Positions 8,001-30,211 of a stretch of 32,350 nucleotides of DNA are shown piece after piece. Position 1 is the first letter of the stretch. The number at the start of each line of letters is the position of its first letter. The notes below the pieces were generated by a model. That model worked only from the letters and a program-made list of their open reading frames with translations, was not told where the DNA came from and made no database searches. The stretch is from Candidatus Micrarchaeota archaeon (GTDB taxonomy: Archaea > Micrarchaeota > Micrarchaeia > Anstonellales > Bilamarchaeaceae), in the NCBI GenBank assembly GCA_018304385.1, contig JAGVWJ010000010.1:1-32350 (forward strand). Direction: 5' to 3'. Position numbers and translations under genes: made by a program.

Positions 8001-8035
8001 AATCAAAACTCACGACTCAAAACTCAAGACCCATG
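8001..8035 (+). repeat. Family C heptamer array (ACTCAnn variant, 5 units)
   Basis: AATCAAA ACTCACG ACTCAAA ACTCAAG ACCCATG, just upstream of the Lrp start. Confidence 0.6.
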
Positions 8036-10340: not shown

Positions 10341-10385
10341 GCCAACGTTTCGTGTCTACGGCCCACTGCTCAGGGCTCAAGGCTT
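10331..10385. repeat. Family C heptamer element (TGAGC units - AACGTT - GCTCA units)
   Basis: TCAGCCG TGAGCCA ACGTT ... GCCCACT GCTCAGG GCTCAAG GCTT. Overlaps the stop of 9141..10340 and precedes rnz. Confidence 0.72.
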
Positions 10386-14500: not shown

Positions 14501-14555
14501 ATTTAGTCTCTTTTTTCTTTATTTTTTATTTTTCTTTATTTTTCTAATTTTTTAA
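14501..14555 (+). terminator. Oligo-T tract terminator after the S-layer gene
   Basis: Several T5-T7 runs immediately after the stop codon. Confidence 0.6.
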
Positions 14556-14639
14556 TTGTTTGCGGGCGTTTAGGTTGTTTTAGGTAATAATTTTTAGTTG
14601 TTGGTTTTTTTTATCGTAATAACAGTTACTTTTATCATT

Positions 14640-14664
14640 GCTCACTGCCAAAGGCTGAGGGCAG
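14640..14664 (+). repeat. Family C heptamer array
   Basis: GCTCACT GCCAAAG GCTGAGG GCAG, upstream of the TATA-like TTTATAAA of ORF 14704. Confidence 0.55.
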
Positions 14665-14703
14665 TAACTCCCATTTATAAATATTTCGTAACAACATACT
14701 ATT

Positions 14704-16119
14704 ATGCAATTTCGCACTTTTTATAATTCTAATAAACCAACGACCAGGAACCAAAGACCCATTAGTGAGAAGGGAGGTTGCGCTAGGAACCGTAGGTTCC
14801 TGGCATTTCGCAATGCATTTACTACAGCAGCAGTTATTTTCGCTTCTTTATTGCCATTTAAAGCGCAAGCAATAGACGTAGGTAGATCAACTGGTTCAGC
14901 TATTTCTGGAGTTAATACTTTAAGAAACGATGATGGAAGCGTTACCTTTGCATTTACAGGGCAAGAAGGCGAGGTAGTTAAATTTACATTTACTAAAGAA
15001 GAATTCGCTGAATTAGTGCGTAAAAAACCTAATAAAAGCGAGTTTGATGCATATTTAAAAGCAAAATTAGATGAAGCAGAAGCTAGGTTAGCTGCATTGA
15101 GAAAAGAAGCAGAAAAAGCGCAACCCCCCAGAGAAATAAGATCACCACCTCAGCCAGTTCCACCTCCGCAAGTTGCACCAGAACCAATGCCAAGACCAGA
15201 ACCACCAAAACCACCCGAACCTGCTCCGCCAACAGAAGTGGCGCCACCACCACAACCTCCACCCGCAGCTCCACCTGAAAGAAGACAAGAACCACCTCCA
15301 TCTTTACGTGAACCAGGTGAATTTTCTTTTGCAGGTAATGTTCGTGATAAACTCCTTAGAGCAAGAGATGCAGATCAAGTAAGGGATGCTTTGAGATCAT
15401 ATGGTGGAGGGGATATAGCAGATGATGCCATATCTACATTGTCTCCTACGGAAAGAGGACGTCTTGTTGCAATGTTAACACCTGCTCAGCAAAAAGAATA
15501 CGGAATATCAAGTATCGCAGGACCACTTTTATCCATGCCAAGTGTATTTCCATTTAAAACTGGTGGTAAGGATGGTGCTATGGGGTTTACAATTGCAGGC
15601 GTAGTAGATCTTAGTATACCAGAAGATGTTATTCTTGCTAAAAATTATAAAAAAATGTTAGAGTTGGTACGTGCAGGTCTTAAAACAGCGCTTAGTGAAG
15701 AACAAGCCCAAATGCCTGCTGATAAGCGTATGTCAAATAGCGATGTCGATGAAGTAGTAGAACGGGTTATGGAAAGTATTGATGAAAAAACACTAGTATC
15801 GCCAACTAATAAGATACTAAAGCAGCTTAAAAAAGATGACGCAGCAACAAAAGCATCGCAAAGATGGACAATTCGTTTTGAATACCCGCCAGAGAGTAAA
15901 ACTGAATATTCTTTAACAGTTACATTCGCTGAAATACGTAGGAAATCAAAAGCAGATATAACAAAAATATTCGAAGCAAAAGTAGAAGAAGCATTAAGCA
16001 GTGTCATATCGGATGGTGGAGAGAGAAAAAAAGCAGTTAGAAAAGTTACAAGGGATCTTAGTTCTGTAGTAGAAGAACTTCATGCGAAAGCAGTAAAATT
16101 AGATCGAGAATTAAACTGA
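14704..16119 (+). CDS. Hypothetical, probably exported protein with a long Pro-rich linker
   Basis: Basic n-region, hydrophobic stretch ending in 'AQA', and a ~60-aa Pro/Glu-rich segment (PPQPVPPPQVAPEPMPRPEPPKPPEPAPP...). Confidence 0.75.
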   Translation: MQFRTFYNSNKPTTRNQRPISEKGGCARNRRFLAFRNAFTTAAVIFASLLPFKAQAIDVGRSTGSAISGVNTLRNDDGSVTFAFTGQEGEVVKFTFTKEEFAELVRKKPNKSEFDAYLKAKLDEAEARLAALRKEAEKAQPPREIRSPPQPVPPPQVAPEPMPRPEPPKPPEPAPPTEVAPPPQPPPAAPPERRQEPPPSLREPGEFSFAGNVRDKLLRARDADQVRDALRSYGGGDIADDAISTLSPTERGRLVAMLTPAQQKEYGISSIAGPLLSMPSVFPFKTGGKDGAMGFTIAGVVDLSIPEDVILAKNYKKMLELVRAGLKTALSEEQAQMPADKRMSNSDVDEVVERVMESIDEKTLVSPTNKILKQLKKDDAATKASQRWTIRFEYPPESKTEYSLTVTFAEIRRKSKADITKIFEAKVEEALSSVISDGGERKKAVRKVTRDLSSVVEELHAKAVKLDRELN

Positions 16120-16160
16120 ATAGCTTCTAATTTTAAATTTTCCCAATTGGAAACCTAGTG

Positions 16161-16250
16161 TTTTCTCATTCTTTTAAAGCCGTCGTCTTACTTTTGTTCT
16201 CTTTAGTGACGATGCACTATTATTTTTATCTTGGCATCGTCGGTCGTTTT
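16161..16250 (-). repeat. Family B ~87-bp structured repeat, copy 1
   Basis: Minus strand reads AAACGACC-GACGATGC-N18-GCATCGTC-ACTAAAG-AGAACAAAAGTAAGA-CGACGG-CTTTAAAAGAATGAGAAAA. Confidence 0.82.
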
Positions 16251-16313
16251 GGTATCTTACTTATACAAATTTTGCGAGTATTTTAAACTATTACACTATA
16301 TAATTTATATCGT

Positions 16314-17348: not shown

Positions 17349-17414
17349 TGAGCCTTGAGCCGTGGGCAGTGAGCAAACGTTGGCTCAATGCTCAAGGCCG
17401 AAGGCTCAAGGCAG
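17349..17414. repeat. Family C palindromic heptamer element (4 TGAGC units, AACGTT centre, 4 GCTCA units)
   Basis: TGAGCCT TGAGCCG TGGGCAG TGAGCAA ACGTTG GCTCAAT GCTCAAG GCCGAAG GCTCAAG GCAG. Confidence 0.85.
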
Positions 17415-18006: not shown

Positions 18007-18288
18007 ATGAAATTTCCAAAAGAGATTAAGACATACTGTCCATTTTGCAGAAAACATCACCCACACAAGGTAAAAGTAGCCAGCAAAAGCAAGGCAAGAA
18101 CAATGGCAGAAGGTAATCGTGCGCACAATCGCAGTTTAGAAGGCCATGGCGGTAAGCGAGCTGGTGAAAAAACAGTAAAAAAACAGGGAAAAAGGCAAAA
18201 GCTCGTATTAGAATGTTCAAGCTGTAAGAAAAAGCACGAAAAGGTTCTTTCTGGAAGAACAATGAAGAAAGTGGAATTGAAATCATAA
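18007..18288 (+). CDS. rpl44e: 50S ribosomal protein L44e
   Basis: 'MKFPKEIKTYCPFCRKHHPHKV' and 'LECSSCKK' zinc ribbon. Confidence 0.95.
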   Translation: MKFPKEIKTYCPFCRKHHPHKVKVASKSKARTMAEGNRAHNRSLEGHGGKRAGEKTVKKQGKRQKLVLECSSCKKKHEKVLSGRTMKKVELKS

Positions 18289-18296
18289 GTTGGCCA

Positions 18297-18324
18297 TGGG
18301 CAATGAGCCCTGAGCTTTGGGTAA
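18297..18324 (+). repeat. Family C heptamer array (TGAGC sense) directly after the rpl44e stop
   Basis: TGGGCAA TGAGCCC TGAGCTT TGGGTAA. Confidence 0.72.
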
Positions 18325-18375
18325 GTTCGTCTAGAGTTCCCAGTTGGAGAACATGAAATAAGGCTTCATAGATCC

Positions 18376-18416
18376 AGAGACCTGCGGTCTCTAGCTCTTC
18401 AAGAAAATCTTGAAGA
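18376..18416. other. Pair of perfect hairpins
   Basis: AGAGACC-TGC-GGTCTCT (18376-18392) and TCTTCAAGA-AAA-TCTTGAAGA (18396-18416). Confidence 0.65.
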
Positions 18417-18500
18417 ACGGTCGACGCGGCATAAGAAAAACAATATACCGCGTCACTATAGAAAATATAGGTAAACGACGGATACGTAATAAAGAGAAAT
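18415..18500 (+). repeat. Family B repeat, copy 2
   Basis: GAACGGTC-GACGCGG-N18-CCGCGTC-ACTATAG-AAAATATAGGTAAA-CGACGG-...AATAAAGAGAAA. Confidence 0.8.
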
Positions 18501-18527
18501 CAGAAGGAAAATATAGTTGGTGAAAAC

Positions 18528-18692
18528 ATGAGTGGAAAATTTTTAAGGGTAAAATGTAAATGTGGGACTGAGCAAACGCTGTTTAGCCATGTTACTTCTT
18601 CTATAACCTGTACTTCTTGTAATGTCGCTTTAGCAGAGCCCAGTGGTGGAGAAGCAGTAATTTTTGGGAAAATCATTAAAGAGGCTGGCTAA
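18528..18692 (+). CDS. rps27e: 30S ribosomal protein S27e (not in ORF track, 54 aa)
   Basis: Translated by hand: MSGKFLRVKCKCGTEQTLFSHVTSSITCTSCNVALAEPSGGEAVIFGKIIKEAG. GGTGA RBS upstream. Confidence 0.93.
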   Translation: MSGKFLRVKCKCGTEQTLFSHVTSSITCTSCNVALAEPSGGEAVIFGKIIKEAG

Positions 18693-23944: not shown

Positions 23945-23979
23945 CTGGCTTTGAGCCTTAAGCACTGGATCATGAGCAT
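23945..23979 (+). repeat. Family C heptamer array (TGAGC sense)
   Basis: CTGGCTT TGAGCCT TAAGCAC TGGATCA TGAGCAT. Confidence 0.6.
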
Positions 23980-24037
23980 ATTTTTAATTTGTTTTATTCT
24001 TCTTTATATCTACTGTTTCTGGTGTTAGAAATACATA

Positions 24038-24123
24038 GAACTGTCGACGTGGCCTAAGTAATATATTAGTCCACGTCACTATAGAGAACATAAGTAATAC
24101 GACGGTTTTAGAATAATGAGAAA
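24038..24123 (+). repeat. Family B repeat, copy 3 (ends ~20 bp before tRNA-Ile)
   Basis: GAACTGTC-GACGTGG-N18-CCACGTC-ACTATAG-AGAACATAAGTAATA-CGACGG-TTTTAGAATAATGAGAAA. Confidence 0.82.
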
Positions 24124-24142
24124 CCAGAAGTAGTACATAGTT

Positions 24143-24282
24143 GGGCCCGTAGCTCAGCCAGGTTGGAGCGTTCGTGCAAAAGCGACGAAACTGATAGAAA
24201 CTTTAGTAAAAGTTTCATCAAAACTGGCACCTTAAGGTTTTCAGAGATCGAAAGGTCTTGTGTTCAAATCACAACGGGCCCA
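24143..24282 (+). tRNA. tRNA-Ile(GAU) with introns at 30/31 (24175-24189, 15 nt) and 37/38 (24197-24246, 50 nt)
   Basis: Acceptor stem GGGCCCG/CGGGCCC plus A73. The spliced arm reads TTCGA-CTGATAA-TCGAA. BHB helices CGTT/GACG and CTGA/TCAG each have two 3-nt bulges. Confidence 0.92.
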
Positions 24283-24291
24283 ATATTTATA

Positions 24292-28737: not shown

Positions 28738-29184
28738 TCACCCGTTAACAATAAATTTTTCACAGTCTTCAAACTGAATCCTTTTATTTTCATTGTTAAG
28801 ATATATAAGAAGTTTTTCTATGTCCTTATTTTTGTAAAGGGCGACACTGTTTATTATCAGTACTAGAGTTCTTTCCTTATTATAAAAGTACAAATAATCT
28901 ATTTCATCAAATGATTTGGTATACAGAACTGTAGCGATATTTTTTATCTCTATTTTTTGTGGTTTTTCTATATTTTCGAAAATAGATGCCTTGTATAGTT
29001 CTCCACTTCCGAACATTATTGGGAATTTCTCGATAAAAAACCTTTGAAATATCTGTTCTAAGGACATGCCAGAAAACAAGACCATGGCAAAAAGCATACC
29101 CCCAAATATTACTAAAACAAAAAATAATGGAATTATTATAATTCCAGTATTATTTTTTCTAATTAACATACTATCTGAATTCAT
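28738..29184 (-). CDS. Hypothetical membrane-anchored protein
   Basis: N-terminal hydrophobic helix. ATGA overlap with the vapC stop. Confidence 0.6.
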   Translation of the reverse strand: MNSDSMLIRKNNTGIIIIPLFFVLVIFGGMLFAMVLFSGMSLEQIFQRFFIEKFPIMFGSGELYKASIFENIEKPQKIEIKNIATVLYTKSFDEIDYLYFYNKERTLVLIINSVALYKNKDIEKLLIYLNNENKRIQFEDCEKFIVNG

Positions 29185-29555
29185 ACTAACTTCAATCCTT
29201 TTATTCCTTCATATTTTTTTCTCTCTTTCGTGAATAAGAATGCATTATTTGAAATGCATATGGCAGCATTAAGAAAGCTATCCATATTTTTATGATTATA
29301 TCCTTGTTCTTTAGATTCTTTAATTAAACGTGCAGCAATACTTGCAGATTTTTTATCAAGATCAAGAATAGTTACACTATTTATTAGAGAACTTGCGATC
29401 TCTTGTTTTCTTATTGCAGATAATAATTGTATAAGCGCAAGCGTAGTTATGCAAATCTCTTCTCGATCCGCATAGTATCTTAATTTTTCTACTGCTGCTT
29501 TTTCACCGCGTAAAAAATCAATAGCTACCTCAGTATCCAAACATATCTTCTCCAT
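29181..29555 (-). CDS. vapC: PIN-domain (VapC-like) protein
   Basis: 'ICLDTEVAIDFLRG', 'LDLDKKSASIAA' and 'DSFLNAAIC'. GGAGG RBS upstream. Confidence 0.82.
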   Translation of the reverse strand: MEKICLDTEVAIDFLRGEKAAVEKLRYYADREEICITTLALIQLLSAIRKQEIASSLINSVTILDLDKKSASIAARLIKESKEQGYNHKNMDSFLNAAICISNNAFLFTKERKKYEGIKGLKLV

Positions 29556-29570
29556 CTGTTATACCTCCTA

Positions 29571-29657
29571 TTTTCTCATTCTTGCAAAGCCGTCGGTTTC
29601 TTTATGTTCTCTATAGGGACGTGGTCCATTGTTTCTCTTATGCCACGTCAGCCGTCT
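29571..29657 (-). repeat. Family B repeat, copy 4 (between vapB and vapC)
   Basis: Minus strand reads AGACGGCT-GACGTGG-N18-CCACGTC-CCTATAG-AGAACATAAAGAAAC-CGACGG-CTTTGCAAGAATGAGAAAA. Confidence 0.82.
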
Positions 29658-29686
29658 GATATATTCCTTATGCAAATAAAACCTAG

Positions 29687-29707
29687 GCTGATTGCTCATG
29701 GCCCACT
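29687..29707 (-). repeat. Family C heptamer array directly after the vapB stop
   Basis: Plus strand reads GCTGATT GCTCATG GCCCACT, which is TGAGC-sense on the vapB strand. Confidence 0.58.
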
Positions 29708-29711
29708 GCAA

Positions 29712-29939
29712 TCACACATACTTTCCCCACTCATGCATTCCTTTTTTTATTCCTTCCATTGCTTTTCTATCAAGGTCTTCATCATTAATACTACCTGCGA
29801 GTGATATTATATTCTTGCTTTCCTTTTCTTTTTCTTCCATTAAGTATCTAATTACTCCACTAAAACTTAATCCTTTGCTCCTTTTTATACGATATAACTC
29901 GGCGTATACATCGTCCATTATCGTTATTACTTTAACCAT
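29712..29939 (-). CDS. vapB: Putative antitoxin (DUF217/VapB-like)
   Basis: 'MVKVITIMDDVYAELYRIKRSKGLSFSGVIRYLM' is typical of archaeal DUF217 antitoxins. Start moved to ATG 29939 (RBS-like GGGCGAT upstream). Confidence 0.8.
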   Translation of the reverse strand: MVKVITIMDDVYAELYRIKRSKGLSFSGVIRYLMEEKEKESKNIISLAGSINDEDLDRKAMEGIKKGMHEWGKYV

Positions 29940-30211
29940 ATGATCGCCCCATGCATTGTGCTGATAAATGTATTTAGTAAATGCATTTAAATGTTTCACT
30001 CGATCTTTACGTCAGTGTGTTTTATTCTAAACAATTGCGAATTATTTTATCAGACGTAAAAACGAATGTATTTAAATCAAAAACTATCGACGTTACTAAG
30101 TTAAGTTCCTCTCGAAAAATTTAGACAACATGCACAAAGCTGTTATGGTTGAGGGGAACCTAACAAAAAAAGGCGACCACACGTGAAAACGTGTCCCAAA
30201 GGTGATTTAAA

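Follow-up and report, generated by a model that had tools for sequence, protein, structure and literature searches.

Repeats that carry promoters are known from bacteria and from one archaeal virus. The putative mobile promoters (PMPs) of Matus-Garcia, Nijveen & van Passel (2012), as summarized in later work, are sequences of at least 50 nt and at least 80 % identity situated between −150 and −50 of a start codon (PMC3575422). Like the repeat described here, which we refer to as the cassette, PMPs are highly similar non-coding sequences found upstream of non-paralogous genes within one genome, but most PMP families are pairs, whilst the cassette family has approximately 42 members (PMC3575422). 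Nineteen pairs of cassettes, involving 17 of 21 protein-linked copies, fall within the PMP definition, and the coding sequences downstream of them are non-paralogous, belonging to unrelated Pfam families. The cassette nevertheless departs from PMPs in several respects: it also precedes tRNA genes, it reaches the start codon with a ribosome-binding site of its own, it bears a covarying hairpin on the sense strand and it has a TATA-like box that tracks genomic context. PMP is, moreover, an operational label without a mechanism, and the promoter activity of the cassette is itself a prediction, drawn from the fit of one of its segments (box 3, below) to native promoters.

Among mobile elements, the Correia repeat enclosed elements of Neisseria are dispersed intergenic repeats of ~100–150 bp that can supply promoters, whose transcribed RNA hairpin alters mRNA fate and whose copies differ between close strains (PMC2649163; PMC2229807). 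They have 26-bp terminal inverted repeats, a TA target duplication, an IHF site and a fold-back of the whole element (PMC2649163; PMC2229807), whereas the cassette has no terminal inverted repeats, contains one short internal hairpin and a putative promoter of archaeal TATA type, and ends at the start codon. By analogy, the cassette would work most like a Correia element, but without the inverted ends that define those elements. REP/REPIN sequences and IS200/IS605-derived palindromic elements resemble the cassette in being short, multi-copy, hairpin-bearing, strand-specific and non-autonomous; they depend, however, on a RAYT/Y1 transposase, which was not found here, lie mostly after genes and are not known to carry either a ribosome-binding site or a TATA box (PMC3116915; PMC8049555). 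The intergenic repeats of halovirus HF2 are, like the cassette, archaeal-type repeats that place promoters before successive genes, but they are viral, 29–58 bp long, not known to carry a hairpin or ribosome-binding site and not dispersed in a cellular chromosome (PMC8707807). On the tests applied, the cassette matched neither IS200/IS605-derived elements nor any Rfam family, and it lacks the terminal inverted repeats of classic MITEs. A coarse literature search turned up no account, from Micrarchaeota or any other cellular archaeon, of a repeat that delivers a whole gene front.

The window, by which we mean the whole 32,350-nt stretch of DNA that was analysed, comes from a tiny groundwater archaeon (Micrarchaeota) and contains four copies of the cassette. 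We put at roughly 60 % the probability that the cassette is a portable gene front, comprising a context-dependent TATA box, a ribosome-binding site and a sense-strand leader hairpin, which is copied and pasted within the genus. If this is true, a very small and packed genome can rewire its transcription units fast, even those encoding ribosomal proteins and toxin–antitoxin pairs. The family would also offer a natural series of ~40 near-identical leaders, with one TATA-like box and the stem allele as the main differences, and thereby a test set for archaeal promoter strength, leaderless versus Shine–Dalgarno-led translation and RNA protection at the 5′ end. For annotators, it would account at once for dozens of 'conserved structured leaders' in this genome.

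Anatomy, copies and distribution of the cassette

Alignment of 39 copies defined a unit of ~127 nt with seven parts. In 5′ to 3′ order these are box 1, an AT-rich stretch; a hairpin with a 7-bp stem and a 17–18-nt loop; 28 strongly conserved nucleotides (CTATAGAGAA...GTAGTACGACGG) that end in CGACGG; box 3, of ~10 variable nucleotides; the motif AATGAGAAA; a purine-rich tail; and, directly before the start codon or tRNA, a terminal ATAG or ACAG. In approximately 32 of the 42 copies in the genome, a gene begins on the same strand shortly after the cassette, the gap being 0–4 nt to an ATG or 1–4 nt to the 5′ end of a tRNA. One of two related species (G001) carries two units head to tail, the second of which has no box 1, indicating that the minimal repeated core extends from the hairpin flank to the ATAG.

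The first-pass annotation of the window had described an ~87-bp element in four copies, all of which were found again by reading of the sequence and by alignment. It had located the core correctly but missed the continuation to the start codon or tRNA 5′ end, and its length estimate accordingly fell short of the ~127 nt of the full unit. The four window copies align over ~130 nt with a mean column identity of 77 %, and each comprises a stem of 7–8 bp, an 18-nt loop and a CGACGG tail, followed by AATGAGAAA or AAAGAGAAA. CGACGG lies 21–22 nt 3′ of the stem in these copies, as annotated. The 18-nt loop, which had been considered constant, holds for 4/4 window copies, but loops vary from 17 to 18 nt genome-wide. 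The window stems are GACGATGC/GCATCGTC, GACGCGG/CCGCGTC and, twice, GACGTGG/CCACGTC.

Copy 1 (16145–16274, minus strand; covariance model match of 92.5 bits) includes the stretch originally annotated (16161–16250), with the hairpin at 16208–16241 and an intact, TATA-like box 3 (5.6 bits) at 16171–16180, both on the minus strand. It is aimed at the 3′ end of a 471-aa ORF (14704–16119, plus strand), with no gene downstream, and comparison with the sister species showed it to be absent from the syntenic stretch in both G001 and the second related species, G002. The stretch 14527–16313 corresponds to only ~210 nt in G001, and the 471-aa ORF, which has no Pfam family, is therefore a variable gene with copy 1 at its 3′ end.

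Copy 2 (18391–18516, plus strand; 110.6 bits) occupies the junction between the genes for L44e (18007–18288) and S27e (18528–18692), identified by Pfam matches to L44 and S27e. Its hairpin is at 18423–18454 and its box 3 at 18480–18491 (plus strand), and a native GGTGA ribosome-binding site has been retained 3′ of it, at 18519–18523. Judged against the empty sites of the sister species, the remainder of the insert is the block 18289–18390 (plus strand), which holds a heptad array (18290–18324), an AT-rich 'box 1' stretch that has been displaced and a nested pair of mini-hairpins (~18374–18416) that extends into copy 2.

Copy 3 (24014–24140, plus strand; 129.8 bits) lies 2 nt 5′ of an interrupted tRNA gene (24143–24283), which was read directly and was also called by ARAGORN with introns allowed. 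The hairpin (24046–24077) and a TATA-like box 3 (24104–24117; 4.2 bits) are present on the plus strand, without GGAGG, and an orthologous copy exists in G002 (C27:733–859). A heptad-like array (family D7; 23947–23979, plus strand) is located 5′ of this copy. With introns allowed, ARAGORN called only four tRNAs in the whole assembly, the one after copy 3 being interrupted by ~70 nt, so most tRNA genes here must be heavily interrupted.

Copy 4 (29556–29681, minus strand; 117.7 bits) is found between vapB (29712–29999) and the PIN-domain gene vapC (29181–29555), both on the minus strand and supported by Pfam matches to VAPB_antitox and PIN. On the same strand are its hairpin (29618–29649), its box 3 (29581–29590), a GGAGG (29564–29568) and the ATG (29553–29555). 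Box 3 of copy 4 carries a TATA-breaking G and C, and its score of −3.7 bits is the lowest of all copies. The vapB–vapC pair (29181–29999, minus strand) is split by a 156-nt insert that consists of the cassette and a heptad array (29685–29711, minus strand), the latter lying between the vapB stop codon, which it follows directly, and copy 4. Three of the four window copies are sense to the downstream unit and the element follows heptad arrays, both in agreement with the first-pass annotation, and the element is cis-acting.

A hidden Markov model built from the four window copies identified 42 copies (E<1e-3) in the organism's own 1.53-Mb assembly (G000; 65 contigs, 89 % complete), and a covariance model of 28 trimmed copies recovered the same 42. 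The covariance model found 11 and 4 copies in the two same-genus species but gave no match in 38 further genomes from the same family and order. When 185,579 species genomes were scanned, the two congeners alone were recovered, labelled Candidatus Micrarchaeota (isolates nzgw32 and SRP093185_co1_148), and a metagenome scan returned one near-identical contig; the pattern used for both matches 18 of the 42 own copies. Pattern scans of viral, phage and plasmid collections gave no match, the first viral scan having used a pattern of low sensitivity that matches only 6 of the 42 own copies. All other matches in public collections failed when re-scored with the model, and the leftover single bacterial matches fit the number expected by chance. 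Comparison with Rfam yielded no match for the window at the gathering score and none for 14 copies even at E≤1, consistent with the earlier failure to recognise a known RNA. The cassette family is confined to one Micrarchaeota genus.

The genes served by the cassette have little in common. Downstream products assigned by Pfam are PIN/VapC, S27e, GlmS, Spt4, a T2SSF-like protein, a KH protein, aIF2-gamma, FEN1, an FAD/NAD oxidoreductase, RpoN, L30, PyrI and S8e, alongside several proteins without a family and several tRNAs. They belong to unrelated families and share no pathway, and about half function in transcription or translation.

The hairpin and the expression signals

Covariation in the stem was significant. 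Stem positions were paired in 98.2 % of cells, compared to 88.0 % in shuffles (0/500 reached the observed value), and sliding the stem partner reduced pairing to 21–50 %, confirming genome-wide the compensatory changes first seen in the window. RNAalifold predicted the 7-bp helix as the sole structure. An alternative pairing with the downstream CGACG, which had been suggested previously, did not hold up: RNAalifold keeps the single hairpin, and the third CGACG is unchanged where the stem arms change (alignment row L031). Stem positions 5–6 occur as TG, CA, CG, AT or TC, each with a matching partner, and at least six alleles exist when G·A is included. Seven copies from three species, the seventh being alignment row L030, carry a tandem G·A/A·G at positions 5–6 within outer stems GACG, GAGC and GTGC. 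In single strands, tandem G·A/A·G pairs form a stable mismatch motif, and the opposite strand would have C·T/T·C at these positions. The strand that folds is therefore the sense strand of the downstream gene. The coexistence of many arm sequences in one genome likewise indicates that base-pairing is selected, rather than the site of a protein in duplex DNA.

Hairpins are intact in 37 of the 42 own copies and are fully Watson–Crick less often in the two relatives; intact hairpins in the expanding genome would also fit a hairpin needed for copying rather than for expression. Orthologous sites in G000 and G002 can carry different stem alleles, which suggests replacement, turnover or conversion between copies. 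Outside this helix the unit showed no consistent fold; z-scores for the four window copies were −0.3 to −2.9. Extension of the stem into the loop was rejected as a family feature, as it pairs in only 50–70 % of copies, and a K-turn reading of the tandem G·A alleles was rejected on direct reading, there being no 3-nt bulge beside the G·A pairs. Bacterial mRNA-stabilizing stem-loops of the ompA 5′ UTR type place a short stem in the leader, 5′-terminal or nearly so. These resemble the cassette stem in that they are maintained by base-pairing rather than by sequence, but for the cassette such a role is a proposal, and the archaeal decay machinery differs.

The presence of a ribosome-binding site depended on the type of gene downstream. 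Within the 20 nt after AATGAGA, a GGAG, GAGG, GGGG, AGGT or GGTG tetramer was observed in 19 of 23 protein-linked copies, but in 0 of 9 RNA-linked copies drawn from G000 and G002 (Fisher p = 2.5e-5). RNA-linked copies are scattered on the copy tree (seven changes), so the contrast is not that of one sub-lineage; the tree has no well-supported branch and was used only to show that these copies do not form one clade. The GGAGG-type site in protein-linked copies implies that at least some of their transcripts must include that stretch.

A survey of native gene starts, covering 716 cassette-free genes with at least 60 nt upstream and based on simple ORF heuristics, placed the maximum of TATA-like hexamers at −30 to −27 relative to the ATG and that of Shine–Dalgarno-like words at −13 to −9. 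Native starts fall into two nearly exclusive classes, with TATA only in 185 genes, Shine–Dalgarno only in 142 and both in 13. The leaderless-type class (185 genes) shows a T-run/A-run TATA at −30 to −23 and T at −1, and the Shine–Dalgarno-led class (142 genes) shows GGGGT/GGAGG at −13 to −9.

The native BRE/TATA profile, which was trained on genes chosen by TATA-like hexamers, fits the cassette best at box 3, with the terminal ATAG as the predicted start, and weakly at box 1, with the first hairpin base as the predicted start. Box 3 exceeded a lenient cut-off in 16 of 34 copies against a background of 20 %, a modest excess, and a strict cut-off in 7 of 34, which was not significant. Box 1 was rejected as a native-type TATA box (10 of 34 copies against a 20 % background, not significant), as was box 2, at which no copy ever scores. 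The box 3 score correlates with genomic context. Its median was 0.2 bits in copies that follow a co-directional ORF (n=20) versus 4.2 in the others (n=13; one-sided Mann–Whitney p = 3.5e-4), and 0.15 (n=18) versus 3.3 (n=5; p = 0.003) when only protein-linked copies were considered; these p-values are overstated, since sub-lineages share box 3 variants by descent. Stand-alone copies have a CTTTATAA- or TTTTATAA-like box 3, whilst operon-internal copies have a G or C in mid-box. That the lowest score belongs to the copy at vapC makes sense for a toxin that should not receive its own promoter. In G002, by reading of the unscored sequences, box 3 has a TATA-like appearance in the tRNA-linked copies but not in the pyrI copy. 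Stand-alone protein-linked copies combine an intact box 3 with a strong GGAGG between the box and the ATG, a combination that requires a second, putative start further upstream; in native genes the TATA and Shine–Dalgarno signals hardly coexist (13 of 198).

On the reading of the cassette as a portable gene front, box 3 would be a TATA box from which transcription starts at the terminal ATAG, preserved in cassettes that have to provide the promoter and mutated in those that precede an operon-internal gene. In transcripts that start upstream, whether by read-through or from a start near box 1, the cassette would form a 5′ leader or intercistronic spacer, and its GGAGG would serve translation of the downstream gene. 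The hairpin would fold in the sense transcript, most likely as a 5′-proximal stem that protects or marks the RNA. The way in which the unit is copied we likewise infer, and one extension of the model, which we regard as rather doubtful, is that the gene-front module spreads without a recognizable transposase by using the sense hairpin as a copying handle, through an RNA or ssDNA intermediate or through recombination between copies. Point changes in the 10-nt box would then switch the promoter, converting ancient operons such as L44e–S27e, vapB–vapC and pyrB–pyrI into separately tunable units.

Empty sites and rival explanations

Empty sites in the sister species indicated that the cassette is a non-autonomous, copied element, as the first-pass annotation had considered. 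The spacer between L44e and S27e is 22 nt in G002 and 9 nt in G001 versus 239 nt here, and the spacer before aIF2-gamma is 1 nt in G001 versus 214 nt here. Further empty sites in the sister species correspond to three sites on contig C33, to glmS and to two genes on C24, with spacers of 1–22 nt overall. In several cases the cassette has taken the place of the native spacer, together with a native TATA box or ribosome-binding site, rather than being added beside it. Sites in common with G002 lie predominantly at RNA genes, in addition to pyrI and spt4, so the family may have begun at RNA genes and spread to protein genes in the present genome.

Hallmarks of a conventional transposon were sought at these sites and across the genome. 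At S27e the block is bordered by the 5-nt sequence GTTGG, and the same letters occur in some cassette ends; no target duplication was seen at the aIF2-gamma, C33 or C24 sites. Terminal inverted repeats are absent, the ends of the 39-copy alignment not being complementary. The 89 %-complete genome contains no match to the Y1 transposase family PF01797, for which controls matched in six genomes, and none to TnpB (PF07282), which was matched in control genomes. No copy found with the covariance model lies next to a large repeated ORF, and the genome yielded no multi-copy transposase-like ORF. The only family of large paralogous ORFs was considered as a hidden transposase and rejected, having no Pfam match and a weak likeness to DUF4046. 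It comprises at least six members of 330–530 aa with 60–65 % identity (G000 C24:32553–34079, C24:36757–38094, C39:11680–13278, C49:2301–3338, C60:18681–19667 and C62:32998–34134), and its Atlas model is weakly DUF4046-like (TM 0.45).

These results bear on the alternative that survives best, although we consider it unlikely, namely that the cassette is a selfish miniature mobile element in which the hairpin is an ssDNA copying signal and the expression parts only neutralize the harm caused by insertion between closely packed genes, with no gain to the host. Recent expansion in a single genome (42 copies versus 11 and 4), the empty sites, the splitting of operons and the nesting of other mini-hairpin repeats inside cassettes are all in keeping with such an element, as are the copies aimed at the 3′ ends of genes, the dominance of fully paired hairpins in the expanding genome compared to their rarity in relatives, and the turnover or conversion implied by different stem alleles at orthologous sites in G000 and G002. 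The selfish reading is countered by the lack of a Y1 TnpA, a TnpB or a multi-copy transposase-like ORF in the 89 %-complete assembly, and by the lack of terminal inverted repeats and of a consistent target duplication. It is countered further by the strong sense-oriented bias towards gene starts, the ribosome-binding-site contrast and the context dependence of box 3, which together show selection on the expression parts.

A non-autonomous element of IS200/IS605 type (REP- or PATE-like), moved by an HUH transposase, was among the candidates of the first-pass annotation and now appears very improbable. A strand-specific hairpin with a conserved flank and many dispersed copies would suit it, but PF01797 and PF07282 are unmatched in a genome set against matching controls, there is one hairpin per unit instead of a subterminal pair, the unit includes a ribosome-binding site and stops at start codons, and nothing similar occurs in the phage, plasmid and viral collections. 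Further still down the scale is a structured cis-regulatory RNA of riboswitch or attenuator type, or a small RNA gene repeated 40 times. The stem does covary and no known family was matched; a multi-helix structure was, however, not found, the conserved structure amounting to one 7-bp helix in a unit that otherwise folds inconsistently and whose inner helix pairs in 50–70 % of copies, and the downstream genes share no pathway, nor does the family extend beyond one genus. Equally implausible is a set of operator sites for one DNA-binding regulator, with the inverted repeat as a dyad site in duplex DNA: a conserved inverted repeat does stand 5′ of many genes, roughly half with roles in transcription or translation, but at least six arm sequences occur in one genome with both arms changing together, more than one regulator could read, the tandem G·A/A·G pairs are strand-specific mismatches that would be meaningless in duplex DNA, and the sister species have the same genes without the site.

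Reversed copies, heptad arrays and nested repeats

Some cassettes are convergent with the neighbouring gene, with examples at G000 C12:67417–67960, G001 C10:8917–9396 (row L041) and G002 C201:709–950 (row L056). A tandem pair common to G000 and G001 directly follows the SRP RNA gene and is aimed into its 3′ end, and one G002 copy likewise points into the 3′ end of a 5S rRNA gene. Since the purine-rich tail becomes T-rich when reverse-complemented, copies in this orientation might be candidate oligo-T terminators; convergent copies could reflect either antisense transcription or terminators of this reversed, T-rich kind.

The heptad ('family C') arrays, which consist of 3–7 heptads of the form T-G/T-R-G-Y-N-N, number 156 in the genome compared to 1.4 in shuffles. 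Besides those mentioned above, arrays are present in the window at 17349–17376 on the plus strand, as is the array at 18290–18324, and at 8006–8033 and 10359–10379 on the minus strand. Many begin 0–11 nt after a same-strand stop codon and they often form facing pairs between convergent genes, whilst 12–20 are located just 5′ of a cassette. One possibility is that the arrays mark gene ends in this lineage.

Cassettes also harbour nested mini-hairpin repeats of at least three other families, which occupy three places: the interval from box 1 to the hairpin, the region 3′ of AATGAGA and the hairpin loop itself. Nested mini-hairpins were found in the window at 18374–18416 and elsewhere in G000 at C12:67417–67567, C46:24634–24783, C51:12175–12326, C44:2753–2905, C33:24522–24670 and C33:21049–21199. 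In G002, mini-hairpin repeats fill junctions that hold a cassette in G000.
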